Counted from the first letter of the stretch, positions 5,794-50,553 are shown. The stretch: DNA of 64,000 nucleotides from Bacillota bacterium (GCA_050260475.1 JBLNCG010000061.1:6851-70850), one strand, 5' to 3'. A program made the numbers and translations. The notes: generated by a model from the sequence alone, not told the origin.

Positions 5794-5805
5794 TTTACGG
5801 CCGGA

Positions 5806-6861: not shown

Positions 6862-6923
6862 GCCATTAGGCCATCGATATTTAGTGGCAAGACGTAAGGT
6901 TATCATAACAACGCAAATTGCTC
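6862..6923 (-). repeat. Partial copy (one half) of the palindromic intergenic repeat
   Basis: GCCATTAGGCCATCGATATTTAGTGGCAAGACGTAAGGTTATCATAACAACGCAAATTGCTC matches the reverse-complement half of the full copies. Confidence 0.7.
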
Positions 6924-7165
6924 TTTTAGTATTCTTAAAAGAAGCTCGTTTACCTCAATTTTTGATAATTTTACCAGCCAGCGGTGCTCTGAAGTGGTCA
7001 AAGGCGTCTCCGTTTTTAAAAAAGCCGAACAGGAAGCAAGAAAAGATTTCCCTTATGCCGGGCGATTTGGGCACAATTTGGGCGGCGCCGATTGACTTTC
7101 CTTTTCATTTATGAAAAAATATAATATGTTTGCGTAAAGCCATCATGCCAAAAAAGGGGATATGC

Positions 7166-8527: not shown

Positions 8528-8624
8528 TGATGCGGCCCGGGAACATCCCCACCATCCGGTCACTTCCACAGGTCAGTGACAGGAAATATATTTAAATAAA
8601 TATTCTTCTGTAGGGGTTGATAAA

Positions 8625-9835: not shown

Positions 9836-12364
9836 ATGAAAAAATCTCATCGTATGCTGAAAATTCTCGGCGCCGTCCTGGCTTTTTTCTGCATGATTAT
9901 TACATATGCCGCGGCGGAAAACGACGCCGCCCCGCCTTATAAAAATCCGAAGCTGCCTGTGGAGGACAGGATCAATGATTTGATCCCCAGGATGACCCTG
10001 GAGGAAAAAATCGACCTCCTGGGCGGCGCGGGCTTTGCCACCAAGCCCAACGCAAGGCTGGGCATTCCGGAAATGAGAATGACCGACGGCCCGGTGGGGG
10101 TGCGGACCAACAAAACCACGGCCTTCCCGGGGGGGATCACTCTGGCGGCCACCTGGGACATTGAGATGGCGCGGAATATCGGCTGGGCCATCGGCAGGGA
10201 AGTCAGGGGGGTAAACAAGCATGTGCTGCTTGGACCGTGCGTCAATATCGCCAGAATCCCGCAGGGAGGCAGGAACTTTGAAAGCTACGGCGAGGATCCG
10301 TACTTGGCGTCGCGGATGACCGTAGCGTATATCAAGGGCGTGCAAAGCCAAAATGTAGCTGCCACCGTAAAACATTACGCCTGTAATAACCAGGAATACC
10401 GCCGCGACAGAGTGGATGTGAAGGTCGGCGCGCGGGCTTTGAATGAGATTTACCTGCCGGCTTTTAAAGCCGCGGTGAGGGAAGCCGGTGTGCTTGCGGT
10501 GATGGGGGCCTACAACCAGGTCAACGGGGATTATTGCTGCCAGAATGATTATCTCCTTACGGAAAAGCTGAAAAAAGAATGGGGCTTCGAAGGCCTGGCC
10601 ATGTCCGACTGGGGCGCAGTACATTCCACGGTTCCCACCACCCTTGCCGGGCTTGACCTGGAGATGCCCACCGGGGGATATTTGAATAACAGCCTTCTGG
10701 AATCCGTAAAAAACGGCACTGTGCCGGTAAAGATCATCGACGGTATGGTGCGTAGGATCTTGAGGGTCATGTTCAGGCTGGGGCTCTTCGAGCAACCGGG
10801 CGCCGAACACGCCGGAAACCTGATCGCCTGCGCGGAACACCGTAAAATAGCGCTGGAAGCGGCCCGTGCAGGCATCGTGCTTTTGAAGAACGATCAGAAT
10901 ATCCTCCCGCTTTCTTCAAGCAATATTAAAACGCTTGCAGTTATCGGGCCCGACGCGGCAAACGCCAGGACCGGCGGAGGGGGCAGCGCCAAGGTGGATC
11001 CCATTTATGCCGTCAGTCCCTGGCAGGCCCTGGAGGAAAGGCTCGGCGCTAAATTAAATATCATATACGCCGCCGGAACATCGGGCGTGGACTTTAAAGA
11101 TAATACAGCCCTCCTCACGTCCTTGAATATGTCCAGGGATAAAGCCGGCGCGGAACCCGGCTTGAGGGGCGAATATTTTAAAAACAGGGCGTTTGAAGGG
11201 AAACCTTTCCTGTCAAGGACTGACGGAAAGATCAGTTTCCATGAGGATTTTGGATTCCCCCACCCGGAAAACGGTTTTTCCGCCCGGTGGACCGGTTTCC
11301 TGCATCCCAAAAAACGGGGGGAATATCAGTTCATCATCGACTGCAACCACGGCGTCCGCCTGCACATCAACGGACAGCCGGTGATCGACAGTTGGCCGAA
11401 CCGGGGGGTCCGGACCGAAAGGGGCGTCATCCAACTGGAAGACAAACCTTGCAGTTTCAAACTGGAATATTTCGGCATCGGGAAAAAATCCTCCATCAAA
11501 CTGGGATGGATCATTCCCGGCGTAAGCCCCCTGGAAAATGCCGCCAACATCGCTTCCGGGGCGGATATGGTTCTGCTTTTCCTGGGCACATCGGGATCCT
11601 GGGAAACCGCGGAATCGGAAGGCCATGACCGTGATTCCCTGTATCTTTCAAAAAGACAGACGGACCTGATCGACAGGATCACACAGGTCAACAAAAACGT
11701 TGTCGTGATCCAATGCTCAGGCAGTCCGGTGCTGATGGATGACTGGCTTGACAAAGTTCCGGCGGTGCTGCAGACCTGGTTCGGCGGTTCGGAGACCGGC
11801 AATGCCGTTGCCGACGTCCTGTTCGGCGATTACAATCCTTCAGGAAAACTCCCGGTGACATTCCCCAGGAATTGGGAGGATTGCTCCGCTTATGGCACAT
11901 ATAGAGGCGACGGCATCACTGCCGATTATTCCGACGGCATTTACGTCGGGTACAGGCATTTCGACAAGCGCGGCATCGAGCCGCTTTTTCCATTCGGTTA
12001 CGGATTGTCGTACACCGCCTTCGCATACGGAAACCTTAAAACGAGCGCAGCCTCCAAGAAAAGTGAAGTAATGGTGGCCTTTGAACTGGAAAATACCGGC
12101 AAGCGCAAAGGCGCCGAAGTGGCGCAGCTTTACGTCAAAAAAATCAAATCCGCCGTGGACCGCCCTGTGCAGGAATTGAAGAGGTTCCAAAAAGTCCTGC
12201 TTGCGCCGGGGGAGAAGAAAAGAGTGGAACTCGTGCTGGTTTGGGATGATTTCGCCTATTATAACGAAAAACAAAAGAAATGGGCGGTGGAGCCGGGGGA
12301 ATATGAAATTCTCGTCGGATCGTCGTCCAGAGACATCAGGCTGAAGGGGAAGTGCAGGTTGTAA
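9836..12364 (+). CDS. Secreted glycoside hydrolase family 3 beta-glucosidase (BglX-like) with inserted PA14 domain
   Basis: RBS GGAGGG then ATG 9836. Signal peptide MKKSHRMLKILGAVLAFFCMIITYAAA. GH3 N-domain (GFEGLAMSDWGAVH with catalytic Asp) and C-domain are present. The PA14 insert is GLRGEYFKNRAFEGKPF...WTGFLHPKKRGEYQFIIDCNHGVRLHINGQPVIDSW. Confidence 0.88.
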   Translation: MKKSHRMLKILGAVLAFFCMIITYAAAENDAAPPYKNPKLPVEDRINDLIPRMTLEEKIDLLGGAGFATKPNARLGIPEMRMTDGPVGVRTNKTTAFPGGITLAATWDIEMARNIGWAIGREVRGVNKHVLLGPCVNIARIPQGGRNFESYGEDPYLASRMTVAYIKGVQSQNVAATVKHYACNNQEYRRDRVDVKVGARALNEIYLPAFKAAVREAGVLAVMGAYNQVNGDYCCQNDYLLTEKLKKEWGFEGLAMSDWGAVHSTVPTTLAGLDLEMPTGGYLNNSLLESVKNGTVPVKIIDGMVRRILRVMFRLGLFEQPGAEHAGNLIACAEHRKIALEAARAGIVLLKNDQNILPLSSSNIKTLAVIGPDAANARTGGGGSAKVDPIYAVSPWQALEERLGAKLNIIYAAGTSGVDFKDNTALLTSLNMSRDKAGAEPGLRGEYFKNRAFEGKPFLSRTDGKISFHEDFGFPHPENGFSARWTGFLHPKKRGEYQFIIDCNHGVRLHINGQPVIDSWPNRGVRTERGVIQLEDKPCSFKLEYFGIGKKSSIKLGWIIPGVSPLENAANIASGADMVLLFLGTSGSWETAESEGHDRDSLYLSKRQTDLIDRITQVNKNVVVIQCSGSPVLMDDWLDKVPAVLQTWFGGSETGNAVADVLFGDYNPSGKLPVTFPRNWEDCSAYGTYRGDGITADYSDGIYVGYRHFDKRGIEPLFPFGYGLSYTAFAYGNLKTSAASKKSEVMVAFELENTGKRKGAEVAQLYVKKIKSAVDRPVQELKRFQKVLLAPGEKKRVELVLVWDDFAYYNEKQKKWAVEPGEYEILVGSSSRDIRLKGKCRL

Positions 12365-13351: not shown

Positions 13352-14326
13352 TTACTCCATCTTCTTCCCCCACAGCTTGTCGTGTAGTTCCCTGCGGTTC
13401 TCCTCCGAATGATAACGGCCTCCTTCCAGGATCGTCCCCGTTTTAAGAACCCGGAAACGCCTGATATCCAAACCACGCAGGTCATCCGGCTTTAAAATCC
13501 CGTCCCAGGATTTGCCGGGCTGGCCGTATAATCCTTCGCCGTAGATGGTCGTGCCTCCGGCCACATCCACGTTAACCGCGCCATATTTCTGCAAAGCGCG
13601 GGCAATCACCTTTGCGCCGGGTGAAAGGCCAAGTTTGTCCACGTCCAGGGACGGATCAAGCTGAATCAGGCATCCCTCAGGGAGTCCGCCTTCCGTGAAA
13701 CCGTCTGTCCAGGTCGCCGGCCAAACATACTTTTTGTAAGCGTTGCAGGCGGTGGCAAATACCAGTTTGTGTTCAATCACGCCCGCCAAAATCTCCTCCA
13801 GCATGAAAAGGCCGGCGATGATTGGGACGCCTGCGGCCCTGCCCGGGCCGTACTTGTGGATCGACTCCCCGTCTTTCACCGCAAACTCCGCGGGATCAAA
13901 GATCCCGTCTTCATCCAGGGAATAGGTCATGCCGGTCATGGATTCCCACTCCCCGTCCTCCCTTTTTTTCACGTAAAACATATCCCAGGCTTTGCGCTTC
14001 TTGTAATCGACTAAAGCCATATGCCTGTCATGTTTGGGATCGGGAATGGCGTGGTCCGGGATGGGCAGCGGATTTTCAAAGCAGGTCCCGTGCGAGGATT
14101 TGCCAGGTTCGAAAAATTTGCCGGTCATGGGATGGACATACCGCATCGGCGTACTGTCGCCGACCTCATACACAGGTATGGTGAACTCATGGATGTTCAG
14201 CCAGAAATTGGGAATGGGTTCCCCGGCCAGAAGATTTATGTAGTGATCGCTTTCGGGATCAATGGCCGGATTTTCAGGAATAGGCGTGTTCCAAAAGCTG
14301 CCGGAAGAAAAAAAGCGTTTGTTCAT
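13352..14326 (-). CDS. Hypothetical protein
   Basis: 324-aa ORF with no recognisable catalytic motif and no signal peptide. Confidence 0.45.
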   Translation of the reverse strand: MNKRFFSSGSFWNTPIPENPAIDPESDHYINLLAGEPIPNFWLNIHEFTIPVYEVGDSTPMRYVHPMTGKFFEPGKSSHGTCFENPLPIPDHAIPDPKHDRHMALVDYKKRKAWDMFYVKKREDGEWESMTGMTYSLDEDGIFDPAEFAVKDGESIHKYGPGRAAGVPIIAGLFMLEEILAGVIEHKLVFATACNAYKKYVWPATWTDGFTEGGLPEGCLIQLDPSLDVDKLGLSPGAKVIARALQKYGAVNVDVAGGTTIYGEGLYGQPGKSWDGILKPDDLRGLDIRRFRVLKTGTILEGGRYHSEENRRELHDKLWGKKME

Positions 14327-20838: not shown

Positions 20839-21975
20839 ATGCCTGATCAAAAATCTCTCCACACCATTTGCCGCTGGACCTTCAACGCCGGCAAGGGCGG
20901 CTTCGTCCCGGCCGATATGCGTCCGGAATGGAGCGGTGCCAAACTGGACACGGTGGGCGTCGTCAGGCTGATCAAGGACAAGATCGCCCCCCGCCTGCCG
21001 TCCAACATTCAACTGGGTTACGAAGTGCACTACGACAGCGAAATCAACGAGCAAAACGCCGCGGAAGCCGCCGACGCCCTGCTGGACGCCAAAATGTACC
21101 TGGGCCTTATCACTCCAGGCGCACACAGCCGCTATGCGTACGGCGGAGTTGCTTCGCTGGACCCGAAAGAGCGCAAAGGATCGGAAGAACTGGCGCTTAG
21201 AACCGTAGACCTCGCCTATGGACCGTTAAAAAAGGCCTGGCACCCCGATCCCGCTTTCGCCCCCACTTATGTGCTCTGGAACGGTTCATACGGCTATGAC
21301 CTGGCATCCGTCGGCGTCAGGAAGATGTATCAAAACCTGAAAGAAAGCGTGGCCGCGCTCTGCAAATACGAGGAGAAAAAAGGCGGCGGACTTTACATCG
21401 GGATTGAACCCAAGCCGAATGAAGGGCATCCCGCCATGCTCCTGCCTACCGTGGCCTCGGCCCTTTTGTTCTTCAGAAAGCTGGAAGAGGAATTCGGCGT
21501 TTCCCGCAAGAAAAAAGGCGTTAACAAGGAATTCGGCCATTCGGAAATGATCGGGCTGGATCATGTTTACGACACCGTGGAGGAACTGGACAACAACGGC
21601 ATGGTCCACATGCATTTGAACAGCCAGGGTTACAACGACGGCGTCATCCTGGGCGGCCCGGGGAAATACGACATCGACCACGGCGCCCGCATCAACGGCA
21701 TGAATATCGCCATCGCGGGCCTGGTTCGGGAAGCAGGTTTCAACCGCTGGAAAGGCCACGATATGCAGGTCCGGGCGTACGATAATGAAGAACAGGGAAT
21801 TGACAGGATTGTCCGGAGCATCCTTTCCTGGGAAGCCTGCGCTACGGCCGCCGGAGAGCTAAATACCGAACAGTTGATGGAGCATCTGGAAAACCGTGAG
21901 ACCGCCAAAGCCGAGGATTTGATGAGGAATGCTTTAGTGGACGCCCAGAAGCGTTTCAATGAGATTTATAATTGA
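20839..21975 (+). CDS. xylA: Xylose isomerase family sugar isomerase (short class-I-like)
   Basis: IGIEPKPNEGHPAMLLPTV matches the XylA signature (L/I)EPKPNEP. GVNKEFGHSEMIGL and VHMHLNSQG match the metal-binding His/Glu blocks of class I xylose isomerases. Substrate not certain. Confidence 0.65.
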   Translation: MPDQKSLHTICRWTFNAGKGGFVPADMRPEWSGAKLDTVGVVRLIKDKIAPRLPSNIQLGYEVHYDSEINEQNAAEAADALLDAKMYLGLITPGAHSRYAYGGVASLDPKERKGSEELALRTVDLAYGPLKKAWHPDPAFAPTYVLWNGSYGYDLASVGVRKMYQNLKESVAALCKYEEKKGGGLYIGIEPKPNEGHPAMLLPTVASALLFFRKLEEEFGVSRKKKGVNKEFGHSEMIGLDHVYDTVEELDNNGMVHMHLNSQGYNDGVILGGPGKYDIDHGARINGMNIAIAGLVREAGFNRWKGHDMQVRAYDNEEQGIDRIVRSILSWEACATAAGELNTEQLMEHLENRETAKAEDLMRNALVDAQKRFNEIYN

Positions 21976-22303: not shown

Positions 22304-22915
22304 ATGTGGAAGAGAGTTATCATCGGGGTTTCCGTATGCCTCATGATGTGGATGGGAGCAAGCCACACTGATGCGGCGGTCTTGCACCAAATCCGCAAGG
22401 GCGAATCCCTATATAAGATAGCCGTAAAAAGCGGGACCACCGTTAAAGAACTTAAACAGGCCAATGGTTTGCAAAGCAATACCATTATTGCCGGTAAGAA
22501 ACTGACGATTCCCACGGAGTCCAAAAGCGCGCATTCCGGGGCTGCAAATGTCACCCGGGACAGCCGTACCATGGAACTGCTGGCCAGATTGATCCACGCC
22601 GAAGCGGGCGCTGAGTCATATAAGGGAAAGGTAGCCGTTGGCGCGGTAATCATTAATCGCTGCAACGACGGAAGATTCCCTCGCACCATCGCCGGCAATA
22701 TATTCAAGCCGCACGAATTTGAATCGGTTTCTAACGGTTATATCTGGACACAGCCAACCGCAGATTGCTACAAGGCTGCCAAAGCCGCCTTGAACGGATG
22801 GGATCCGACCAACGGGGCGAAGTTCTTCTTCAATCCCGCCAAAGTGAGCGGCGGATCCTGGATGTGGACCCGCACCATCATCCAGCGCATCGGAAACCAT
22901 GTTTTTGCGGTGTAA
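22304..22915 (+). CDS. Spore cortex-lytic/cell wall hydrolase (SleB/CwlJ-type Hydrolase_2) with N-terminal LysM domain and signal peptide
   Basis: LysM segment is HQIRKGESLYKIAVKSGTTVKELKQANGL. Hydrolase_2 segment is LLARLIHAEAGAESYKGKVAVGAVIINRCNDGRFP...FFNPA. Confidence 0.75.
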   Translation: MWKRVIIGVSVCLMMWMGASHTDAAVLHQIRKGESLYKIAVKSGTTVKELKQANGLQSNTIIAGKKLTIPTESKSAHSGAANVTRDSRTMELLARLIHAEAGAESYKGKVAVGAVIINRCNDGRFPRTIAGNIFKPHEFESVSNGYIWTQPTADCYKAAKAALNGWDPTNGAKFFFNPAKVSGGSWMWTRTIIQRIGNHVFAV

Positions 22916-25692: not shown

Positions 25693-25869
25693 TTTTTGTC
25701 ACCATCCCATCGGGGCAATTAGTAAGTTTATATAACTCTATTTTAGCATACCTTTGTTTAATTTCCACATAAAGGAAGGAACTTCGCGAAAACCATAGAA
25801 ATAATTATTACCAGGGGCTTGATGATCCCCCCCCTGAATGTCCAACTTCGATCACGAGGAGGTAATTCC

Positions 25870-26442
25870 ATGGATAAATATTTCTTTGTAAAATCCATTC
25901 TGAGGCATTTATCAAACGGACTCACCTTTAAGAAAATCTGCGCCTTTTTCCTCAAAATCGCGGCGGTAGTGGTCATCCTGGCGGGATTGGTAGGATGGAT
26001 CTACGCCTGGAAAGCCATCTTCACCTCGGATGTCACCGGTATAATCCCCGGCGGAATCGGAGTCCAGATTCTTGCGGTGGTATTTCTCTATATGGTTGTG
26101 CACAACCTGATGATCAGGGCCGCGGATGTTGAAAAAAACGCCGACTCCGGGTATACCGTGATGTCCATAACCTCGATAATTCTCAAACTTGTCGGGGAAA
26201 TTTACGCCTGGTTTCTTGCTTTTGCCGGAATCGCCGGGGGGCTCTTCGCATGGATCTCAGGAAAACCGCTCTCCCTTCTGTTCAATGAAACCGCGCCGTT
26301 TATCCCGGTACTGGGGGAAGCCACTTTTTTGGGCGGAGTCACCGCCATCCTGGCCGGCGCCGCTTGGGCATTTGTTTCTTTGGTAGCCTTTTATTTTCTG
26401 TCGGAATTGGTTTCAGCAGTAATACATATAGCGAAACGGTAA
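25870..26442 (+). CDS. Hypothetical polytopic membrane protein
   Basis: RBS GGAGG then ATG 25870. Four to five hydrophobic helices. Confidence 0.5.
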   Translation: MDKYFFVKSILRHLSNGLTFKKICAFFLKIAAVVVILAGLVGWIYAWKAIFTSDVTGIIPGGIGVQILAVVFLYMVVHNLMIRAADVEKNADSGYTVMSITSIILKLVGEIYAWFLAFAGIAGGLFAWISGKPLSLLFNETAPFIPVLGEATFLGGVTAILAGAAWAFVSLVAFYFLSELVSAVIHIAKR

Positions 26443-26509: not shown

Positions 26510-28180
26510 TCATACCCTGAACATTCCGTAAGACCGCCCCTCCATGGCAATGGAAACCGTACCGGGTCCGAAGGCCAGTTCCGTACCCCATCCAGCAAGC
26601 ATCTCAGGTTCCCGTCCCATGCCGGACAGTTTCAATCTCGCCTCTGACGGGCTCCGGGACGGATTAAGCGCCACCAGGACACGCGCTCTTCCGTTGGAAC
26701 GCATATATATGAAGGGGTATTTTTTCCGTTTGGCATAAAGCGGGATAAAATCAGCGTATGCCGCCAAACCCTTTTCAAAGCGCCTGAGTCTGATAAGATG
26801 TCGGACCCGGTTCAGCAATGAACACGGGTTTTTTTCCTGCTCCTCCACGCTGGGAGCGCCGGGAGCGCTATCTACCGGAAGATACAACTTATCCGGCGGC
26901 GCCGAAGAAAAGCCGGCGTTCTTTCCCGCGGTCCACTGCATGGGCGTCCTGGCCCCGGACCGCGGGCGGTATGCGCCTTCCTTATTCGGCAGTCCGTCAA
27001 GGTGCCGCATGCCGATTTCATCGCCGTAATAAAAAAACGGCACGCCGGGCATGGTGAACAGAAAGGCGTAAATGATCTCCAGTTCCTCATGGGAACGGGC
27101 GATATTGATGCGGGACAGATCGTGATTGCCCACCGGGATGGAGATATACCCTTTGCTCCGAGTGGCGTCAAGCTGATCCAGATAACATTCCAAAAACCTG
27201 CTGATATCCCCCCGGCCTTCGGCGTCAAAATAACTTTGACCTTCGCTCAGGCCGTTCAACGCCCGCCGGGATTCCTTCCTGAAAAGATCCTGATAACTCT
27301 CCACCCAGTGCAAAAAGTCGGCATGGAACCCCGCCCGCAGGGCCGCCTTGGGCCAGGACCACTCCGAGACCAGAAACGCATCCGGGTAATCCGCTTCAAG
27401 CATGGCCCGCACTTCCCGCCAGAACTTCGCGGCTTCCCTGCCCCCCGGATCCCTGCGGATGATGGACCCGGCCATATCCACCCGGAAGCCGGATGCGCCC
27501 ATATCCAGCCAAAAGCGCAGGATGCCTTTTATTTCCTTTCGCAGCGCGAGAATGTCCGGATGATCCGTAGGCAGCTGCCATGCTTTGTCCGGATCAGGCT
27601 TCCCGAATCCGAAATTCAAGGCGGGCTGCGACCAAAAGAAATTGGTCAAAAAATTGCCGTTCCGCTCGCACCATCCATGGATGAATTTCCCTGCGAATTC
27701 GCCGCCTCCCATGTCCCAGGTATTGTCGGTCCAGATATACCAGTTGGTGTATTTGTTCCTTTCCGGTTTGCAGGATTCGCGAAACCAGGGATGATCGATG
27801 GAGGTATGCCCGGGCACGAAGTCCAGGATCACTCTTAAATCCCTTTTTTTCGCCTCCGCGAAAAGCTTTTTCATATCCTCATTGGTTCCGTATCTGGGGG
27901 CGACCCTGTAATAATCCGCCACATCATATCCGGCATCGCGGAATGGAGAGACATAACATGGATTCAGCCAGACGGCGCTCACGCCCAGGCTTTTCACGTA
28001 ATCGAGTTTCACGGTGATGCCCGGGATATCGCCGATCCCGTCCCCGTCGAAATCATAAAAAGTTTGAGGGTATATCTCATAAAACACCGCATCGTGCACC
28101 CAGGCCGGGCATTTAGGTTTCATCTGCAGCAGCCTCCCGACATTTACAAAAATCTTCTCGTATTTTTCTATCTCCGCCAT
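26510..28180 (-). CDS. Glycoside hydrolase family 13 alpha-glucosidase/oligo-1,6-glucosidase-like
   Basis: GDGIGDIPGITVKLDYVKSLGVSAVWLNPCYVSP, DFVPGHTS and GFRVDMAGSI are GH13 conserved regions I, II and flanking blocks. Confidence 0.88.
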   Translation of the reverse strand: MAEIEKYEKIFVNVGRLLQMKPKCPAWVHDAVFYEIYPQTFYDFDGDGIGDIPGITVKLDYVKSLGVSAVWLNPCYVSPFRDAGYDVADYYRVAPRYGTNEDMKKLFAEAKKRDLRVILDFVPGHTSIDHPWFRESCKPERNKYTNWYIWTDNTWDMGGGEFAGKFIHGWCERNGNFLTNFFWSQPALNFGFGKPDPDKAWQLPTDHPDILALRKEIKGILRFWLDMGASGFRVDMAGSIIRRDPGGREAAKFWREVRAMLEADYPDAFLVSEWSWPKAALRAGFHADFLHWVESYQDLFRKESRRALNGLSEGQSYFDAEGRGDISRFLECYLDQLDATRSKGYISIPVGNHDLSRINIARSHEELEIIYAFLFTMPGVPFFYYGDEIGMRHLDGLPNKEGAYRPRSGARTPMQWTAGKNAGFSSAPPDKLYLPVDSAPGAPSVEEQEKNPCSLLNRVRHLIRLRRFEKGLAAYADFIPLYAKRKKYPFIYMRSNGRARVLVALNPSRSPSEARLKLSGMGREPEMLAGWGTELAFGPGTVSIAMEGRSYGMFRV

Positions 28181-28334
28181 TCTTTTCCTGCTTATAACAG
28201 AATCATTTGATCGGAAATGAATTGTAACTGCCCAGTAGTTACGATAATAATCCGTATATATCCGGCATGACCGGGAATAAAAAAGCCGAGGAACGCTTCC
28301 CCGGCTAAAAAATATCGTCGGCCTTCAGGCGGAT

Positions 28335-29273
28335 TTAGAACATGACTTTCATCGCGAATTTCAAATTGGAATAATCGCCGAGATTATCCATGAAATATTC
28401 GCCCCAGACAATGATGTCTTCGTTCAGCATATAATTGCCGCCGACGGTCATATAATCCAAACCGGCGGGTAATCCCCCCCAATATAAATCAAGCTCTTCC
28501 GCCATGCACATGCCTGCATAAAGATTCATTTGCCGGGAAACCGCGTATGCCCCCTCAATATACATGCCGGTTACCGCGTCCTGCTTAACGCCCGCATCCG
28601 TGGGAGTATAGGATATATATTCGAAATAAGCGCTGAATGCGTCCATTCTGAAAGCCGCGTCAACCACCATATGAAAATTGGAATCCTCGGCCCCCCCATT
28701 CCGCGTATCCTGGGCGATCCCCAGGCCGACGATGAAATTCTGATTAAGCGCAAATTCCCCCCGCAGCGTAAAATCAAGATATTCGTCCCCGTTTTCGAAC
28801 TCCATGTTGGCTGCATTGGTGACGGAGCCGATGGCCGTCAACAGGCCCAGGTTGACACGGTATTTTGCTCCGGCGGCGTTAAAACCGAACATTTCGCACA
28901 TCTGATCCCCTAAACTGCCCCCAAGAGTCATGCTCCTGCCCGCGTGCCAGGTAAGCGGAAAATAGCCCAGATCCAGCTCATCCTGAGCGAAGATGTTTTT
29001 CTGATAGTAATAGGCTTGCCATAGCAGATTGTTCTGGTGGGACATAAACCGGATTTCGCTTTTAAAACCGTTGTTCTGGCCGAAGTCCGCATCCGTTATG
29101 AGGGCAAGCCTGTTTACGGTGAAGGAACGGATGCTGTTGCCCGGCCCATCCTCACCCAGGATCAATGTTCCCAGAAAATACCCTCCCATCTTTACGTTGA
29201 TCGCGGCCGGGGAGACGGCCGCCAACCCGAACAGCATGGATAAAGCCAATGCCAAAACCAGAATCTTTTTCAA
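28335..29273 (-). CDS. Putative outer-membrane beta-barrel (porin-like) protein
   Basis: Signal peptide MKKILVLALALSMLFGLAAVSPAA. The mature part shows alternating hydrophobic/polar beta-strand periodicity with aromatic girdles (YFEYISYTP, GMYIEGAYAVS, YMTVGGNYMLN, IIVWGEYFMDN) and ends in a C-terminal Phe (LKFAMKVMF). Confidence 0.5.
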   Translation of the reverse strand: MKKILVLALALSMLFGLAAVSPAAINVKMGGYFLGTLILGEDGPGNSIRSFTVNRLALITDADFGQNNGFKSEIRFMSHQNNLLWQAYYYQKNIFAQDELDLGYFPLTWHAGRSMTLGGSLGDQMCEMFGFNAAGAKYRVNLGLLTAIGSVTNAANMEFENGDEYLDFTLRGEFALNQNFIVGLGIAQDTRNGGAEDSNFHMVVDAAFRMDAFSAYFEYISYTPTDAGVKQDAVTGMYIEGAYAVSRQMNLYAGMCMAEELDLYWGGLPAGLDYMTVGGNYMLNEDIIVWGEYFMDNLGDYSNLKFAMKVMF

Positions 29274-29513
29274 TTATGTATGTACCTCCTTTTAGATTTT
29301 CAATAACTTATTAATACGCCGCACCGCCAGGGAATCCTGCGATAAAAAACGGTTTGAGGCACTTTTACTGCTGGTAAGTGAACGCTTTTGCATATATCGG
29401 CAGATGCCCGGCATTTTTTTAGCGGCAATGGCTCAATCCCGCAAAAAAACACCAGCCATAAGCATCGGCAAGTTATCTGCCTCCCCCGTCAACAAATCCG
29501 CCCTGCAAGCCGA

Positions 29514-30026
29514 TTACGAAACCATGCGATACTTTTCGACCATCCTTTGAAATTCCTTGAAGCCCTTCGCATCGCTAAATGCCCGACAGGGTATAATGAA
29601 CGCCCTCGCCTTCACTCCGAAAATACAAGTGTAATCCCGGGTATTAACAACACGGTATATTTCGCTCCATGACAGATCCCCCCTGGCGCTCCTGATCCCT
29701 TCCGCAGTGATGTCCATCCCGACAATACCCAGTTTGTTACGATTCTTGTCCAGCGACGCCGACACCCCCCTGCGCACCAGAACTTTGATTTGCCGGGGAT
29801 AGATGAATAGCCACGCGATCACTCCCAAAAGACCGAGAAAAACTCCGGTTACACTCGCCCTGCCGTCAACGAACGGCTTCAACACAACCCCCATATAAAA
29901 GACCAAAGGCAGTCCCCATTTTAAAAGAGCCCTGGTAATCCGGGTTTCCTTTGTATGCATGTAATGATGATAATTGATGTTCACCAGATCATCCACATCC
30001 ATCCTATATTCCAAATGCATCTTCAA
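29514..30026 (-). CDS. YcxB-like small membrane protein
   Basis: 170 aa with two central TM helices followed by a soluble C-domain (YcxB-like architecture). Confidence 0.4.
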   Translation of the reverse strand: MKMHLEYRMDVDDLVNINYHHYMHTKETRITRALLKWGLPLVFYMGVVLKPFVDGRASVTGVFLGLLGVIAWLFIYPRQIKVLVRRGVSASLDKNRNKLGIVGMDITAEGIRSARGDLSWSEIYRVVNTRDYTCIFGVKARAFIIPCRAFSDAKGFKEFQRMVEKYRMVS

Positions 30027-30378: not shown

Positions 30379-31674
30379 TTACATTGCCGATGGCATCTCC
30401 GTAACGCTTTTCATCTTACGGTTGTAATGAAACCTCGTCAGAATGCAAATACAAACCAGGAGTATCGCGATGGACGCAATATAAATGAGGGGTTGGCAAA
30501 TGTCATACAGATAGCCGGAAACAAAGCCGAAGACGGCGCTTGTGATCATGGTGATGGTGTTATTCAGGGCGAAGACGCCGGCCCGTTCCCTGCCGGAGGT
30601 GACATCCGCCAGAAAGGTGTCGATAAAAGGCTTGGTGACTGCATAACCCGTTGCGAAAACAGCCACGCTCACCACAGCGAGAAGAAAGTGGCCCCGGGGT
30701 ATGAACACCATCATGGTCAGCGACAGAATCTGCAGCAGGATGCCCCAGACCATAATAGGGATATGGTTGCGCTTGGAAAGGACCGGCATGACCAGGGAGA
30801 ATACTAAAAGCATCATAAGTGAAAGGACTCCTCCTAAAAAGGAGATGGCGGATTTGTCCAGTTTCAGGACTTCGGTCAGGTAGGGGGCGAAATAAAGGCT
30901 GTTGAAGGTGCCCACGGGAAGGTAGGCGTTAAATAAAACCAGCAGCCAGGAAGCCATTTTCACATCCGGTTTGCCCTTATAGGCATCAAGAGCGGGCCTG
31001 TAAAGATTACGGCGCCACAACGCCTTTCCCTTTTCCCTGTGCTCCTTAAGTATCTCAAGTCCTATTTTGGTCTCCCTGAAATAATGGTGGCGCGCTATAA
31101 TCATCACGGACATGCTTACCGCGGCGAAAACCAGCAGAATCTTTTCCGCCCGGATGATACCAAGGTGCAGTACAAGCAATCCCGCAAGAGGTGTCAGGAC
31201 CCCGGTGGAAATATTGATGATGTTCAGCCAGTTGAAGGCGCCTACCTGCTGCCGCCGGTCCGCGTCCTCCACTATCATCAGGTTCCAGGAAACCGATACA
31301 ATTCGTACGGTGCTGTTGATGAGGGTAGCCAAGACAAAGATCCAATAGCTTCCACCGATGAGGTAAAACAATACGGCGCCGGGCCAGGAGATCATGTCAA
31401 AAATCAGGGTGGTCATTCTTCTCCCCCAGGCGTCGGTGACGATGCCGCTGAAAAAAGAAAAAAGAGCCCCAAATATGAATCCCAGTGATATGAGGTATCC
31501 GATCTCCCTTTTGGTGACTCCCTGGCTCATCATGTAAAGGCTTAGATAAAACTTATATAGAAAATACGGCAAGCCCCATAAAGGCTGGAATAAAACGGCG
31601 ATCCGCGCATTGCCCTTAAGGGCATGAAACGATCTGAACAGATTCTCGGAGCGGTCAGGCATATGTGATTCCAT
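30379..31674 (-). CDS. MFS transporter
   Basis: 431 aa with 12 predicted TM helices. The loop motif GIVTDAWGRRMT resembles MFS motif A. Confidence 0.8.
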   Translation of the reverse strand: MESHMPDRSENLFRSFHALKGNARIAVLFQPLWGLPYFLYKFYLSLYMMSQGVTKREIGYLISLGFIFGALFSFFSGIVTDAWGRRMTTLIFDMISWPGAVLFYLIGGSYWIFVLATLINSTVRIVSVSWNLMIVEDADRRQQVGAFNWLNIINISTGVLTPLAGLLVLHLGIIRAEKILLVFAAVSMSVMIIARHHYFRETKIGLEILKEHREKGKALWRRNLYRPALDAYKGKPDVKMASWLLVLFNAYLPVGTFNSLYFAPYLTEVLKLDKSAISFLGGVLSLMMLLVFSLVMPVLSKRNHIPIMVWGILLQILSLTMMVFIPRGHFLLAVVSVAVFATGYAVTKPFIDTFLADVTSGRERAGVFALNNTITMITSAVFGFVSGYLYDICQPLIYIASIAILLVCICILTRFHYNRKMKSVTEMPSAM

Positions 31675-31819: not shown

Positions 31820-32927
31820 CTACGCAACGCCGGCTTTCCTCCATTTCAGGTATCCTTCGATGAATGCGTCCAATTCTCCGTCCATCACAGCCTCCACGTT
31901 TCCCGTTTCCACCTCCGTACGGTGGTCCTTCACCATGGTATACGGGCAGAATACATAGGAACGAATCTGGCTCCCCCAGGCGATGTCCTGGTGTTCGCCG
32001 CGCAATTCCGAAAGCTTGGTCTCCTGTTCCTGCCGTTTCCGCTCCGCGAGTTTGGCCGCAAGGAGCTTCATAGCAGTGGCGCGGTTCTGGATCTGGGATC
32101 GCTCATTCTGACAGGTAACCACGATTCCGGTAGGAAGGTGGGTGATCCTGATGGCGGATTCGGTTTTGTTCACGTGCTGCCCACCGGCCCCTCCGGAGCG
32201 GAAGGTGTCCACTTTGATCTCCGTAGAATCGATCTGCACATCCTCGTCGTCTTCCAGTTCGGGTAAAATGTCCACGGATGAAAACGAGGTGTGGCGCCGC
32301 GAATTGGCGTCGAAAGGGGAGATGCGCACCAGCCTGTGCACGCCTTTTTCCCCTTTCAAATAACCGTAAGCATTGGTTCCGGAGATTAGAACGGTGGAGC
32401 TTTTAATGCCTGCTTCCTCCCCGGGCAGGAAGTCGATCAACTCGGTTTGAAACCCGGACCGCTCCGCCCACCGCAAATACATGCGCTGCAACATTTCGGC
32501 CCAATCCTGGGATTCAGTGCCGCCCGCGCCGGCGTGGATGATCAGGTAGGCGTTGCGGCTGTCGTATTCCCCCGAAAGCAGAGTGGTAAGCTCCATCTGC
32601 TCAAGGTCTTTCCCCAAAGCGGATAAATCGGCGGCAAATTCGCTCTCCAGCTCAGCATCCCCGGCTACCAGTTCCAGGATCTCCAACAGATCCTGCTGGC
32701 GCTTTTCCAGCATGGATATTTTTTCCACCTGATTTTTTAGGCCGTTCAATTCTTTCAATAGTTTTTGAGCCTTTTGCGGATCGTTCCAGAGATCCTGCTT
32801 TTGGCTCTCCCGTTCCAGTTCGTTTATCTTCCGTATTTTTCCGGGCAGGTCAAAGATAATTCCTCATTTCATCCATCCGCTGCCCCAGTCCTTTAATCTC
32901 CCTCTTTGCCTCAGCCGTATCCAACAT
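31820..32927 (-). CDS. prfB: Peptide chain release factor 2, with programmed +1 ribosomal frameshift at CTT TGA C (shift site 32850..32855)
   Basis: RBS GGGAG then ATG 32927. The first 25 codons are MLDTAEAKREIKGLGQRMDEMRNYL, followed by in-frame TGA preceded by the SD-like GAGG, which is the classic RF2 autoregulatory site. The +1 frame continues DLPGKIRKINELERESQ... into the body carrying SPF (VRISPFDANSRRHTS) and GGQ (RSGGAGGQHVNKTES). Confidence 0.92.
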
Positions 32928-32992
32928 TGTCGTCACTCCCGTTTTTTCAATTATCACACCAGCAATCAGTAAACAGTAATAATCACTTAAGT

Positions 32993-35917: not shown

Positions 35918-36775
35918 ATGCGTAAAACATTTCTGATATGCGTATTTTTATTGTTATTATCCAACATGATTATATCTGCTCAAGGTGCATTTATTCTGTC
36001 ATCGGCGATCCCCGGAACCTATGCTCTGACTCCTGTGGATTCCCAAAAAACCAGATGTGATATAGAAAGCGAAATGCTCCCTTTGGATCAAATAAACGTG
36101 GATATCCCCCAAAAAAATACCATCAATAAAGCTTTTTATGTCCCGATAATTCCTGGTTCTTATAATGATGTTCTCGCTGACTATAATGAATACTTCTCCG
36201 CTAAAATCAACTTGGGTGAAAAAGATTATGCCATATATACAGGGAAAAAAACGAACAAAGTAAACGAAAAGGAAATACTTACCTTTTTTTACGGCATTGA
36301 TATAAATAATAATGGAATGCTTGAAGGTAACGAATATAAAATGGATTATTTTTTATCCTACGATCCTGATAAACATGTGTATTACGTATGGCTTAATAAA
36401 AACCGGTTTAAATTTGATATTCCTTATAACATCAACGGCATGGAAGAAACAAAAACACTCAGCGTTTACATGACTTATCTTATACAAAGGGGCTGGAGTA
36501 AGCTATGGCTTGAGGTAGATACATACTTTAGCGGCAGAGTTCTTTTATCCAACAATATTGAAATAAATATCGCAATTATGGACGGTAATAACAACGGCGT
36601 TTTCAACGATAAAGAGGATCTTATCCTGGTTGATTCAAATAAAAACTCCCGATTTGAAGAACAGGAAGCCATGCAGCTTCGCAAGGAATTCAAAATCGGC
36701 AAGGGAAAATACCGCTTCGCCCTGGACGGGCCTTATCCGACGAAAATAACCGTGGAACCGGCGCCGGAAAAATAA
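35918..36775 (+). CDS. Secreted protein with two canonical EF-hand calcium-binding loops, encoded in a low-GC (~35%) island
   Basis: RBS AAGGAGGG. Signal peptide MRKTFLICVFLLLLSNMIISAQG. The loops DINNNGMLEGNE and DGNNNGVFNDKE fit the 12-residue EF-hand consensus (D-x-N-x-N-G-x-hydrophobic-x-x-x-E). Local composition differs sharply from the window. Confidence 0.6.
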   Translation: MRKTFLICVFLLLLSNMIISAQGAFILSSAIPGTYALTPVDSQKTRCDIESEMLPLDQINVDIPQKNTINKAFYVPIIPGSYNDVLADYNEYFSAKINLGEKDYAIYTGKKTNKVNEKEILTFFYGIDINNNGMLEGNEYKMDYFLSYDPDKHVYYVWLNKNRFKFDIPYNINGMEETKTLSVYMTYLIQRGWSKLWLEVDTYFSGRVLLSNNIEINIAIMDGNNNGVFNDKEDLILVDSNKNSRFEEQEAMQLRKEFKIGKGKYRFALDGPYPTKITVEPAPEK

Positions 36776-37188: not shown

Positions 37189-38559
37189 TTATTTAGCCTC
37201 CTTCAGCACTGTATGACCGCCGGATATGGTGGCGTTAAAACCATTTGAACCCATAACCGCATGAATAGGTTTCCGGGCGGGAAATTCCGGATAGGCGGTA
37301 TTGCCGTGTTCACCGATATCAAGACCTTCGATTTCCTCCTGCAGACTGACACGGATTCCAAAAGTCAGCTTAATAATAATCCAGGCGGCTATTGATATGG
37401 CAAATACGAATACCGCCACGCCAAGTACCCCGGATAACTGCGTAAAGAGCAGTTTGAAGCCGCCCCCGAAAAGAAGGCCGTTTCCTGTTGCAGTTCCGGT
37501 AATGGAATTCTGTGCAAAGAGGCCTAACGCCAGCGTGCCGAATACCCCGTTTACCAGATGAACCGATAAAGCGCCGACGGGATCGTCTATTTTTAAACGA
37601 TCAAACATTATGACCGAAAATACTACCAAAATTCCGGCAATTGCCCCGATAATCACGGAACTTCCTACATTTACAAAGGCGCAAGACGCAGTGATGGCAA
37701 CCAAACCCGCCAGGCATCCGTTCAGGGTCATGCCCAGATCGGGCTTGCCTAAAAGCACCCAGGCTAATGCGGTAGAGCTTAAAACAGCCGCAATCGCCGC
37801 GGTATTCGTGGTCATAAGGATATGGGATATCGCTTTCGGATCGGCAGCCATAGTAGAGCCGGGGTTGAATCCGAACCATCCGAGCCAGAGTACGAAAGCG
37901 CCGATGGTAGCGATGCTCATATTATGGCCGGGGATAGGATTGATTTTGCCGTCCTTCGTATACTTGCCGAAACGCGGACCGAGCATCAATATTCCGGCCA
38001 ATGCCGCCCACCCTCCCACGGAATGGACCGCCGTGGAGCCTGCGAAATCGAACATCCCCATATTTGCCAGCCATCCGCCGCCCCAGATCCAGTGGCCGAC
38101 GACGGGGTAAATCACCACTGCCATTACGAAAGTGAACATTATAAAAGAGAGGTATTTAATCCTTTCCGCGACAGCCCCGGAAACTATAGTTGCCGCCGTT
38201 CCGCAAAAAACCAAATGAAAGAAAAATTTGGCCAAAAGCGGCACTCCCGTCCAGGATAGCGCGGAATAAACGCCCCTGTATGCCGCGCCGACTGCAGGCG
38301 AATTATCCGCTCCACTGATGAACCACAACCCTTTTAGTCCGACAAACGGATTGCCGTCTCCGAACATGAGCCCCCACCCCAACAGAAGAAATCCAAGGGA
38401 AGATATGGCAAAGACAATGAAATTCTTGGACAATATATTGACGCAATTCTTGGCGCGGGCAAAACCTGATTCCACCATGGCAAACCCCAGGTTCATGAAG
38501 AATACCAGCATCGCTGCCAATAGGACCCATAATGTGTCTAAAACCACTTTAACATCCAT
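37189..38559 (-). CDS. amt: Ammonium transporter
   Basis: 456-aa Amt/MEP family protein with multiple TM helices and conserved Amt Phe/His gate residues. It forms an operon with glnK. Confidence 0.93.
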   Translation of the reverse strand: MDVKVVLDTLWVLLAAMLVFFMNLGFAMVESGFARAKNCVNILSKNFIVFAISSLGFLLLGWGLMFGDGNPFVGLKGLWFISGADNSPAVGAAYRGVYSALSWTGVPLLAKFFFHLVFCGTAATIVSGAVAERIKYLSFIMFTFVMAVVIYPVVGHWIWGGGWLANMGMFDFAGSTAVHSVGGWAALAGILMLGPRFGKYTKDGKINPIPGHNMSIATIGAFVLWLGWFGFNPGSTMAADPKAISHILMTTNTAAIAAVLSSTALAWVLLGKPDLGMTLNGCLAGLVAITASCAFVNVGSSVIIGAIAGILVVFSVIMFDRLKIDDPVGALSVHLVNGVFGTLALGLFAQNSITGTATGNGLLFGGGFKLLFTQLSGVLGVAVFVFAISIAAWIIIKLTFGIRVSLQEEIEGLDIGEHGNTAYPEFPARKPIHAVMGSNGFNATISGGHTVLKEAK

Positions 38560-38817
38560 TGCTTTCCCTCCCGCTTTTATTATTTCATTCGTGAATATGG
38601 ACGCGTTTTAAATTGCCCGCATCACCTCCTTTATTTAATAACAGCCGGTATAGCGTCTAAAAGTACTTTCCGCCCGGCCCGGATATGTATATAAAAAAGC
38701 GCCTACGCAGACCATGCTATAGACGCCTTTGCCGGGATACACCTTCGTATCGGATAAATTTATAGAATTGTCAGACTAAGGCTTTCCTGTTTCCCCGCGG
38801 GATGTGAATGGCGTTGG

Positions 38818-38865
38818 CTTTTAAAAATTAAGAAGGCGACCTGTCTTTTCGGGACAGACGCCTTC
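38818..38865 (-). terminator. Leader terminator/attenuator in the 5' region of amt-glnK (reverse-strand hairpin GAAGGCGTCTGTCCCGAAAAGACAGGTCGCCTTC followed by TTAATTTTTAAAAG)
   Basis: A near-perfect 15-bp stem sits ~270 nt upstream of the amt start codon and is followed by a U-rich tract. This fits ANTAR-controlled antitermination by the adjacent GAF-ANTAR protein. Confidence 0.55.
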
Positions 38866-39054
38866 GCCTTCAAATACGCCTTTGTATTTATGAATTCATA
38901 ATACCAAATAAGGGTTTGGAAGTCAAGGCGGCTGCCTCGTAAAAATCCAACTTTTCATATGGTAAAAAACGCTCTAAGACAATGCTTTTCATGGACAAAT
39001 AGTTCTTTAACAGAGCACGTCTTTATGCTAATATTGTTATGTGGAGGGAAACGC

Positions 39055-40284
39055 ATGAATTTAGAAATGAAGGAACTTCAACTTCTGCATCTTTTAAATA
39101 AGACAGTGGGTTCCTCACTGGAGATAAACAAAATCCTGCAGCAAATCGTGGAAATAGTCCGCGATATCACCGGGGGGGACAGTTGCTTCATCTACCTGCT
39201 TGACCAAAAACGGAAACGTCTGGTACTGAAAGCTTCATGGAAAAAACACAGCAGGATCCTGGATCAGATATCGGTCAAATTGGGGGAAGGAATCACCGGC
39301 TGGGTCGCGCAGGCAAAAACGCCTGTATCCATTGCCTATAAAGCCTATAACGATTCCCGATTCAAGTATTTTCCCCGGCTGCCCGAGGACAAATTTGAGG
39401 CGTTCCTTTCTGTGCCGGTTATTTCCAATGATAAATTAATCGGAGTCATCAACGTTCAGCACGCCAAGCCGCATGAATACACCGAAACCGAGATCGCCCT
39501 TGCCGCCACCGCCGCCCAGTATGCCGGGGTTTCCATCATCAATGCGCGGCTTTACGAAGAGGCCCGTAAAAAGAACTCCCAACTGGAAGCGCTATTCCAG
39601 ATCAGTCAGTCACTGGTCTCCAACAAATATTTTGAGGAAATCCTCACATTTATAGCCACGACCACGGCTGAAATCGTCAAGGTCAGCGTATGCTCCATCA
39701 TGCTGATAAACGGCGATAAAAAATCCTTTCGCTTCAAAGCCATCTCCTGCCCGGATCAGGTTTATCACCGCGATATCAGCATACCCATTCAAAGCACTGT
39801 TTGCGGCCAGACCTACCGGACCAGCAGACCCGTTTACGTGGCTGATGTTCGCCGGGAATCCAAATTTGCGTTGCCGGATTTCGCGAAAAAATACAACCTT
39901 TGCTCCATGCTCTCCGTTCCGATGATGTGCAAGAATGAAATGATGGGCGTAGTGAACGTTTACACAGTCAAACCCCACGAGTTCAGCGAAGAGGAGATCA
40001 GCCTGCTGCAGGCGGTGGCCAATCATGCGGCGGCGGCTATTCACCACACCAGGCTTGCTCAGGAGATCGATAAAACCAAGAACGACCTGATGACCCATAA
40101 AAAACTGCAGCGCGCGAAAAGTATCCTGATCAACAATTATAAGATTTCGGAAGAGGAAGCGCACCGGCTGATCCTGAAAAAAAGCATGGATCTCGGCAGG
40201 CCCCTGCTGGAAATCGCAGAGGCCATCATCACAGGCGCAATAGTCCGGCCAGGCATGAACGACCTTACCGGAGACGCGGAGTGA
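39055..40284 (+). CDS. GAF-GAF-ANTAR RNA-binding antitermination regulator
   Basis: RBS GGAGGG then ATG 39055. Two GAF domains. The C-terminal ANTAR helix bundle is HKKLQRAKSILINNYKISEEEAHRLILKKSMDLGRPLLEIAEAII. It is divergent from amt-glnK. Confidence 0.8.
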   Translation: MNLEMKELQLLHLLNKTVGSSLEINKILQQIVEIVRDITGGDSCFIYLLDQKRKRLVLKASWKKHSRILDQISVKLGEGITGWVAQAKTPVSIAYKAYNDSRFKYFPRLPEDKFEAFLSVPVISNDKLIGVINVQHAKPHEYTETEIALAATAAQYAGVSIINARLYEEARKKNSQLEALFQISQSLVSNKYFEEILTFIATTTAEIVKVSVCSIMLINGDKKSFRFKAISCPDQVYHRDISIPIQSTVCGQTYRTSRPVYVADVRRESKFALPDFAKKYNLCSMLSVPMMCKNEMMGVVNVYTVKPHEFSEEEISLLQAVANHAAAAIHHTRLAQEIDKTKNDLMTHKKLQRAKSILINNYKISEEEAHRLILKKSMDLGRPLLEIAEAIITGAIVRPGMNDLTGDAE

Positions 40285-45193: not shown

Positions 45194-46252
45194 TTATAAT
45201 CCCTGACCCGCCGCCTTCGAAGGCGGCAATTTCGCCTTATCCATACCTTCGCGCCATGGGAATTCCCGTGCGGCATCTACAAACGCCGCAAGATTTTCCA
45301 GCGGAACCCCCGCCGGAAGGTCGCATCCGGATGATAAAATAAAATTAGCTTTTCCGTTCATATTCTTAAGGATAATTCCGGTTTCTTCCCGCACCATTTC
45401 CGGAGTGCCCTGCAAGAATATCCCGGACGGATCCACATTGCCGAAGAGGACCAGATCGGGCGGGATCTGCGCCCATACCTCCTGCAGATTCATGCAGGAC
45501 CCCACGCTCAAGCCTTCCGTCCCGATCTTTGAATATGACTCCATAAGATGCCCTATACGGCCGCAATTGTGGAGCACCGGGCTTGCCCCCGCGGATTTTA
45601 TTTTTTCCATGAGCTGTCTCACATAAGCATTGGAAAATTCCCCGGCTTGAGACGGTGAAAACAAACTGGCCGTGGGTTCAAGGATCCAGACGCAATCGGG
45701 ACCGGATGCAAGGATCCCGGAGAGATATTCCTGCAGGAATGCATGGCAGAATTCAAGCAAGCCATGCACAAACTCCGGTTCCAACGCCACGTTCACGGCC
45801 AGTTCGGTGGTTCCCATCAATCTGCCTGCCATGGACAGGGGCCCCAGGATATATCCGCATTTCACCGCCTCCGTAGGCAGATTTTTCACAATCATCCGCA
45901 CAGTGTCGATGAATACATGGAGGCGGCCTTCTCCGCCTGCGGAAGGGAGTTTAAGCTTGGATAAATCCCCGGCGCAGCAAACCGCGTGGCCTTCCACCGC
46001 AGGCGCTTCGTCGCTCATTTTTACTTTTGCGCCGGCGGCCTCGCACTCCACGGTGAGATCCATCATGGGGAAGACAAAATCCGGCCGGAACCTGTCATAC
46101 AAAGAACTGACGGTATCAAACTGTCTGGCTGCCGATGTAAGGTTCTCCTGCAGATTGCCGCCGGTCAGCCGCATGCCGGGAAATCCCGCCAACGGAGCAA
46201 TTATGGGCCGTTTCGCAGAGTTGATCCTATTGTATAATTTCATGTCTTTCAT
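45194..46252 (-). CDS. URO-D family methyltransferase (MtaA/CmuA-like; methylcobamide-dependent methyltransferase)
   Basis: 352-aa URO-D fold protein (RPIIAPLAGFPGMRLTGGNL...). It lies in a cluster with a corrinoid protein. Confidence 0.6.
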   Translation of the reverse strand: MKDMKLYNRINSAKRPIIAPLAGFPGMRLTGGNLQENLTSAARQFDTVSSLYDRFRPDFVFPMMDLTVECEAAGAKVKMSDEAPAVEGHAVCCAGDLSKLKLPSAGGEGRLHVFIDTVRMIVKNLPTEAVKCGYILGPLSMAGRLMGTTELAVNVALEPEFVHGLLEFCHAFLQEYLSGILASGPDCVWILEPTASLFSPSQAGEFSNAYVRQLMEKIKSAGASPVLHNCGRIGHLMESYSKIGTEGLSVGSCMNLQEVWAQIPPDLVLFGNVDPSGIFLQGTPEMVREETGIILKNMNGKANFILSSGCDLPAGVPLENLAAFVDAAREFPWREGMDKAKLPPSKAAGQGL

Positions 46253-46504
46253 CTTCCTTTCCTACTTTAAAATATAACCTTGCGGTTAAAGAGTATATGT
46301 TTTTTTTAAGATGCGTGGTATTTTCTTGGCTTTCACCGGGAAATGCACAAATTATTGCCAAGTATAAAAAAAAATTACAATAAAAATCATCAGAGGCAGG
46401 TATATGATGAAAGTGGATTGAAAATAGTCACCGTCCCGTTTTTTCAAAAAAGGACCTCCGGCGTTCACCTCGAAAATATATAATGTCATTTCCGGGAGGT
46501 GGCC

Positions 46505-47773: not shown

Positions 47774-47825
47774 AAACCGCAAGTTACGCGGAAAAATGGT
47801 TAAATCAAAAACGGGAGGAAAGAAC

Positions 47826-48458: not shown

Positions 48459-48512
48459 TATTATATGGATATTTAAAATTATGGCCCGCCATATATGAAA
48501 GGGGAAAAGCGG

Positions 48513-50550: not shown

Positions 50551-50553
50551 AAA

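Follow-up and report, generated by a model that had tools for sequence, protein, structure and literature searches.

Can a spore-forming member of the Bacillota carry an outer-membrane porin, and what would such a channel do there? This question is raised by a gene in a 64,000-nucleotide stretch of DNA from a Bacillota bacterium (GCA_050260475.1, JBLNCG010000061.1:6851-70850), hereafter the window. The gene (28335-29273, minus strand) starts with TTG, ends with a stop codon at 28335-28337, and encodes a protein of 312 residues including a signal peptide. An original prediction, made from the sequence alone, had taken the product for an outer-membrane β-barrel in a diderm spore-former. Our analyses led us to the view, to which we assign a probability of roughly 0.8, that the product of the gene is a stand-alone diffusion porin of the outer membrane. 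The protein would reside in the outer membrane and depend on the β-barrel assembly machinery, and the window copy, being monocistronic and in a non-conserved context, is most likely a general porin.

Structure prediction had been proposed as a check of the original prediction, and AlphaFold2 run on a 24-sequence family alignment returned a porin-type model (predicted local distance difference test score [pLDDT] of 86 and predicted template modelling score of 0.80) with exactly 16 strands, as in the 16-stranded antiparallel β-barrels of the Gram-negative porin superfamily. This agrees with the 12-16 amphipathic strands counted beforehand, and the hydrophobic/polar alternation inside the predicted strands stood out against 2000 shuffles (z = 3.5). 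All 12 Lys and Arg residues of the strands lay on the lumen (polar) face and none on the lipid face, and the mature protein was acidic (34 Asp and Glu versus 16 Lys and Arg), which is usual for porins. Inspection by eye suggested an enrichment of aromatic residues at the ends of strands. In the model, a signal-peptide helix (residues 2-19) is followed by strand 1 from residue 26, and a single helix (residues 121-129) is located between strands 5 and 6. According to the secondary structure of the model, this helix belongs to a 25-residue loop (residues 107-131; 28881-28955, minus strand) situated where the constriction loop L3 of classical porins lies. Alignments to closed barrels suggested that the barrel is closed and that this loop folds inward, and by analogy the loop may act as the constriction.

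Both termini of the protein pointed in the same direction. The signal peptide comprises residues 1-23 (MKKILVLALALSMLFGLAAVSPA, with predicted cleavage before an Ala; 29205-29273, minus strand). Its n-region contains KK and is followed by a hydrophobic core and an AxA-like site, without any Cys, a form also conserved throughout the family alignment. Because an AxA-like site is present and Cys is absent, the signal peptide is of the canonical signal peptidase I (SPase I) type with no lipobox, the cleavage site being placed from sequence; a lipoprotein was ruled out by the lack of Cys. The C-terminal strand ends in the β-signal-like motif LKFAMKVMF (28338-28364, minus strand), with alternating hydrophobic residues at -2, -4, -6, and -8. 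The terminal Phe was shared by 43 of 46 family sequences, and the three exceptions were a fragment, an unrelated 980-residue match, and a protein ending in Leu. The signal peptide and the Phe-terminal reading frame described in the original prediction were therefore borne out.

The gene is native, intact, and not decaying, as seen from its codon composition, ribosome-binding site, and terminator. The strong ribosome-binding site AAAAGGAGG (29285-29293, minus strand) has its GGAGG end 11 nucleotides before the TTG start. A GC-rich, intrinsic-terminator-like hairpin of 10 bp with six G-C pairs, together with a T-tract (28276-28306, minus strand), lies 29 nucleotides past the stop codon; it was called by a consensus scan, which does not imply functional proof. 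Given this hairpin, the porin gene looks like its own transcription unit, and the arrangement suggests a monocistronic transcript that ends before the downstream gene for a glycoside hydrolase of family 13 (GH13). The GC content of the gene was 50.6% and that of the window 51.1%, not the ~57% estimated earlier, and GC at third codon positions (GC3) was 0.64, compared with 0.65-0.68 in neighbouring genes. No porin paralogue was found elsewhere in the window.

We then defined the family to which the protein belongs. A word-indexed search of a 5.8-billion-protein index retrieved only the window protein itself, annotated at NCBI as 'hypothetical protein' from a Bacillota metagenome-assembled genome (MAG), and the same type of search with the family profile retrieved three sequences only. 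When 1.84 billion cluster representatives were scanned exhaustively with HMMER, 38 proteins were recovered at E <= 1e-3, including 21 at E <= 1e-10; the best relative (P0002) showed 36% identity (E = 5.5e-35) to the window protein (P0001). All family members with a source name were 'hypothetical protein' entries from Bacillota/Firmicutes MAGs, and none was seen in Gram-negative phyla. Seven MAGs that carry the family are DATCJV01, DUOH01, JAEZJQ01, JARKQY01, JAFABB01, JAEZKW01, and DNPP01 (UBA8346). The members' lengths ranged from 275 to 366 residues in the 24-sequence alignment and up to ~400 across the wider family. The alignment contained 13 invariant columns (initiator Met, G69, Y90, G103, G135, Y138, R171, D205, E218, E240, Y252, G278, and E292), all of which the window protein keeps together with the C-terminal Phe motif, whose family consensus is hydrophobic-x-hydrophobic-R-hydrophobic-[KR]-V-[DNS]-F. 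The family is small, rare, fast-evolving, and confined to uncultured deep-branching Bacillota. A neighbour-joining tree distributed porins linked to Pst genes over at least three clades and placed the window protein on a long branch with members from generic contexts.

Relatives of the window protein connected the family to known porins. The Pfam family Porin_4 (PF13609) matched four of the 24 members (best E = 3.5e-9), and P0002 and P0009 carry precomputed matches to it; the other member-by-member Pfam matches were OMP_b-brl (four members), Porin_O_P (three), and SlpA_C, the SlpA/OmpM-type barrel (one). The window protein itself gave no direct match to the Porin_4 hidden Markov model, and its membership, as judged from these profiles, is transitive via relatives. 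In the absence of a direct sequence match, the link to known porins rests on the fold and on the weak Pfam matches of relatives.

We compared the window protein with three kinds of characterised porins. It has the predicted classical fold of general porins such as Omp32 of Delftia acidovorans, OmpF/OmpC/PhoE, Neisseria PorB, and Vibrio OmpU/OmpT, but its identity to them was only 8-16% over structural alignments, with neither a Pfam match nor profile-level similarity to OmpF; the PEFGG-type L3 motif was missing on inspection by eye, and its host belongs to the spore-forming Bacillota, not to the proteobacteria. OprP/OprO of Pseudomonas and PhoE of Escherichia coli are phosphate-starvation-induced anion porins of the Pho regulon, and six relatives of the window protein likewise occur in pst/pho loci, whereas the window copy lies outside any Pho locus, between genes for a major facilitator superfamily (MFS) transporter and a YcxB-like protein and the GH13 gene. 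OprP is also ~100 residues longer than the window protein and has an arginine ladder, and Porin_O_P (PF07396) did not match the window protein, the best E among the three matching relatives being 1.2e-5. OmpM proteins (Veillonella parvula OmpM1-4 and Mep45 of Selenomonas), which act as porin and tether in one in diderm Firmicutes and other Terrabacteria, have an N-terminal SLH domain and a stalk, whereas the window protein has neither (no Pfam SLH match). Its mature form starts 2-3 residues before strand 1 (residue 26 in the model), a layout common to all family members. OmpM identity was rejected on the lack of an SLH domain or coiled-coil stalk, and without these parts the protein cannot tether the outer membrane to peptidoglycan.

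These features suggest the following mechanism. The precursor would be exported by Sec, a SecA gene being located 4 kb from the porin gene, and cleaved by SPase I after residue 23. The porin would then cross the periplasm, and a BamA-type machine would recognise the C-terminal strand ending in Phe and insert it in the outer membrane. There it would fold to a 16-stranded β-barrel in which the strand 5-6 loop with its short helix turns inward and narrows a water-filled channel, lined with charges, through which small hydrophilic solutes could pass. Trimers would probably form, by analogy with all structural neighbours. Lacking an SLH or stalk domain, the protein would serve as a channel only, with no peptidoglycan tether.

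The genes around the porin raise an alternative in which it is a dedicated channel for alpha-glucosides or malto-oligosaccharides and forms a sugar uptake route with the MFS transporter and the cytoplasmic GH13 enzyme. Downstream lies the gene for this GH13 alpha-glucosidase or TreS-like enzyme (26510-28180; PF00128, E = 1e-73; NCBIfam matches all below their cut-offs), and upstream lie those for the YcxB-like membrane protein (29514-30026; PF14317) and the MFS transporter (30379-31674; PF07690), all on the minus strand. Structural neighbours of the model include a chitoporin and sucrose-complexed PorB, and the attachment to a specific importer is clear for many relatives, both of which would suit a sugar channel. 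However, the porin gene has its own terminator, and the MFS/porin/GH13 arrangement was seen in no relative. On these two grounds a general diffusion porin is favoured, and we regard the sugar channel as unlikely, albeit the strongest of the competitors.

The attachment of relatives to importers was apparent from their genomic contexts. A reference-genome locus search with a three-sequence alignment yielded seven loci, none from the source MAG, and a metagenome scan added two short ones. In six loci (L009, L014, L016, L017, L018, and L024) the porin was inside a Pho-type locus containing pstS, a chemoreceptor gene, pstC, pstA, pstB, phoU, and genes for a PhoB-type regulator, a PhoR-type kinase, and a PHO4 permease, with alkaline phosphatase also carried by two of the six. 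Other members were found immediately in front of cysP-T-W-A and genes for sulfate assimilation, 43 nucleotides upstream of a FecCD-type ATP-binding cassette importer, and upstream of a LivKHMGF-type importer. Many family members are therefore dedicated to particular uptake systems (phosphate, sulfate, and others), and gene context is the ground for any phosphate selectivity attributed to the family.

The Pst/Pho genes flanking the porins were strongly conserved among the six Pho-type loci (phmmer E ~1e-100 to 1e-290 for full-length proteins), whereas the porins themselves came from at least three clades, which suggests either very fast porin evolution or replacement of paralogues at a fixed locus. 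One MAG locus (L002) contained tandem porin-family paralogues (8265-9323, 352 residues; 10001-11092, 363 residues) as well as the Firmicute-typical cdaA-glmM-glmS arrangement. Beside five Pho loci we observed a conserved, divergent set of genes for a PAP2 phosphatase, a PlsC-type acyltransferase, a FeeM-type N-acyl amino acid synthase, and a metallophosphoesterase (L009 5301-8737, L014 6049-9675, L016 3350-6838, L018 89-3300, and L024 5648-9333), which looks like phosphate-starvation remodelling of membrane lipids towards aminolipids.

Next, we focused on the host. The germination and cortex-lysis genes of an endospore-former, named in the original prediction, were confirmed in the window: a GerA-family spore germination receptor subunit gene cut by the window end (62626-64000, plus strand; PF03323, E = 7e-137), a gene for a SleB-like cortex-lytic enzyme with LysM and Hydrolase_2 domains (22304-22915, plus strand; TIGR02869, 172 bits, below the 236.5-bit equivalog cut-off), and a gene for a CwlD-like N-acetylmuramoyl-L-alanine amidase (4999-5793, plus strand; Amidase_3, PF01520, E = 5e-40; TIGR02883, 160 bits, below the 221.55-bit equivalog cut-off). 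An independent Logan assembly contained the porin and SleB-like genes on one 12.5-kb contig, which argues against a chimeric contig. The left flank beyond the window added 6 kb of unrelated genes, so that the portion of the source genome covered amounts to the 64-kb window plus ~6 kb.

Taken together, a spore-former with a Gram-negative-type outer membrane, that is, a diderm host, is probable but unproven. Four lines of evidence argue for it. The porin gene is conserved, intact, and of native codon composition. It is physically linked to sporulation genes, a linkage repeated in the independent assembly. Relatives sit in uptake loci with binding proteins of a periplasmic type: the porin-adjacent PstS proteins (six of six) and CysP had SPase-I-type signal peptides with no credible lipobox, the single match to the lipobox pattern (VLAC in the PstS of L018) falling within the hydrophobic core. 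The solute-binding proteins of monoderm Firmicutes are known to be lipoproteins, and lipobox-less PstS and CysP fit free periplasmic proteins in a periplasm closed by an outer membrane. Finally, a family-bearing MAG, UBA8346, bears the name of a GTDB family to which an OPB54 MAG has been assigned (PMC12993600). OPB54 also contains Hydrogenispora and Capillibacterium thermochitinicola, and the latter, an OPB54 isolate, is a Gram-negative spore-former in which thin sections viewed by transmission electron microscopy show an outer membrane, peptidoglycan, and a plasma membrane (PMC8375423).

The recognised diderm classes of Firmicutes are the Negativicutes, Halanaerobiia, and Limnochordia (PMC11448272, PMC11456536), and the original prediction had named a Negativicutes, Halanaerobiales, or Limnochordia-like host. 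We used SecA for placement, as a single marker outside a proper phylogeny. No other sequence exceeded 66% identity to the window SecA (best non-self match); 84 of its top 120 matches fell in the Hydrogenispora ethanolica clade, whose members share >= 75% identity with H. ethanolica, and the only named relatives among the 120 were H. ethanolica (65%) and Desulfallas sp. (65%). Negativicutes, Halanaerobiales, or Limnochordia names were absent from these top 120 relatives. In the literature searched, no paper mentioned both 'diderm' and Hydrogenispora. Hence, the porin-like barrel of the original prediction is upheld by the fold, the family, and the terminal Phe, and the spore-former by its genes; the diderm envelope gains indirect support, and the named taxa found none.

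Several observations weigh against an outer-membrane porin in a diderm host. With regard to the barrel, the window protein had no Pfam, NCBIfam, or PDB sequence match at E <= 10, the family profile gave no real PDB sequence match (only spurious signal-peptide alignments to TspO), and hhalign assigned a probability of 0.5% to its alignment with E. coli OmpF. The structure is a prediction built on a shallow alignment of 24 sequences, and AlphaFold2 run on the single sequence gave no usable model (pLDDT 31). With regard to the envelope, SecA was equally distant (~65%) from the Hydrogenispora clade and the monoderm Desulfallas, so that phylogeny gives no ground for grouping the organism with known diderms. 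Probes with E. coli BamA, Skp, LpxA-D, and TolC gave no match at E <= 1 in ~325 kb (the window and related loci), which represent a few percent of each genome and are too small to provide evidence of absence. The Liv-type binding protein adjoining a porin (L026) has a lipobox, and H. ethanolica is listed as Gram-positive-staining (PMC8375423).

Part of this evidence would also suit a porin-fold barrel in a monoderm, be it a non-functional relic of a lost outer membrane, a protein of a transient membrane associated with the spore, or a secreted pore-former. The ~325 kb showed no outer-membrane biogenesis gene, SecA does not put the MAG in a recognised diderm class, the listing of H. ethanolica as Gram-positive-staining agrees with it, and many deep Bacillota stain Gram-negative yet have no BamA or lipopolysaccharide genes (PMC11448272). 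Nevertheless, the intact reading frame, the retained invariant columns and C-terminal Phe motif, the strong ribosome-binding site, and the native codon usage do not indicate a decaying relic, and soluble pore-forming toxins do not share the porin fold. The repeated pairing of family members with lipobox-less binding proteins in uptake loci makes sense only with a periplasm inside a second membrane. Moreover, to our knowledge, 16-stranded porins occur only in outer membranes and need an Omp85 insertase. We therefore judge a monoderm setting improbable and retain the outer-membrane diffusion porin.

A foreign origin of the porin, be it an artefact of mis-assembly or of contaminating Gram-negative DNA or the result of recent horizontal acquisition, hardly merits credence: the source is a MAG and only one exact copy of the protein is on record, but two independent assemblies (the 151-kb NCBI contig and the Logan contig with the SleB-like gene) join the porin to Firmicute genes, its GC and GC3 equal those of its neighbours, every named relative derives from Bacillota/Firmicutes MAGs with no member seen in Gram-negative phyla, and one relative locus has the Firmicute-typical cdaA-glmM-glmS arrangement, so that recent transfer and a chimeric contig were both rejected on composition and independent assembly.

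Neither porins, which are textbook proteins, nor diderm spore-forming Firmicutes are new in kind; what is new is an unannotated member family of this well-known kind. The family escapes annotation, since its named members are labelled 'hypothetical protein' and neither Pfam nor NCBIfam has a model matching the window protein, and automated outer-membrane-marker screens of Bacillota MAGs would miss it. The only characterised Bacillota porins, OmpM, double as peptidoglycan tethers and have been proposed as the sole general porins, a generalisation (Silale et al.) that a channel-only porin family in Bacillota would modestly qualify. An uncultured deep Bacillota lineage, not obviously belonging to the Negativicutes, Halanaerobiia, or Limnochordia, is here flagged as probably diderm, which is relevant to the number of outer-membrane losses in Firmicutes. 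Family members recur in loci for Pho, sulfate, and other importers, and this offers simple predictions of substrate-regulated porins that lend themselves to testing. A broader and more speculative proposal, which we consider possible rather than probable, is that the source MAG and the OPB54/UBA8346/Hydrogenispora-related carriers are diderm spore-forming lineages outside the three recognised diderm classes, or outside strict Limnochordia, with lineage-specific, SLH-less, stand-alone porins wired to single uptake systems (Pho, sulfate, iron/cobalamin-type, and amino acids). Were this the case, diderm Firmicutes would not have to couple solute uptake to outer-membrane tethering through OmpM, and the multiple-loss scenario of Firmicute envelope evolution would have to accommodate one further lineage with a retained outer membrane.

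The window also contained features separate from the porin. The prfB gene for release factor 2 (31820-32990, minus strand) has a classical programmed +1 frameshift site, CTT TGA C, at 32855, and its first ~25 codons (MLDTAEAKREIKGLGQRMDEMRNYL-stop) are out of frame with the main 312-codon reading frame. The 1.3 kb at 5793-7130 had no intact reading frame and contained minus-strand fragments in different frames with matches to Glyco_hydro_2 (6441-6758, E = 2e-4) and Glyco_hydro_2_N2 (6568-6831, E = 4e-3); this region has the look of a GH2 glycosidase pseudogene, decayed and frameshifted. An ammonium transporter gene (Amt) is divergent from a GAF-GAF-ANTAR regulator gene (37189-40284), with no adjacent P-II gene in the window, whereas the relative's locus L024 has Amt followed by P-II. 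Six open reading frames of 207-378 residues had no Pfam match at E <= 0.01 (13352-14326, 20839-21975, 25819-26442, 35918-36775, 48495-49574, and 58180-59142), one of which (35918-36775) has a clear signal peptide.

A corrinoid-dependent methyltransferase-like cluster (45194-49574) comprised a URO-D/MtaA-like gene, genes for a PocR-AraC regulator and a B12-binding corrinoid protein, and a 359-residue reading frame with no family match; a second URO-D-like gene was located at 8625-9719. Next to this cluster, five minus-strand genes (49579-55024) encode a 2-hydroxyacid dehydrogenase, a PMT_2/ArnT-like GT-C glycosyltransferase, a DUF362 protein, a PHP protein, and a UbiA prenyltransferase. The ArnT-like glycosyltransferase showed a weak match (28 bits) to the lipid IV(A) L-Ara4N transferase, and the run may constitute a polyprenyl-phosphate-sugar module for envelope glycosylation.
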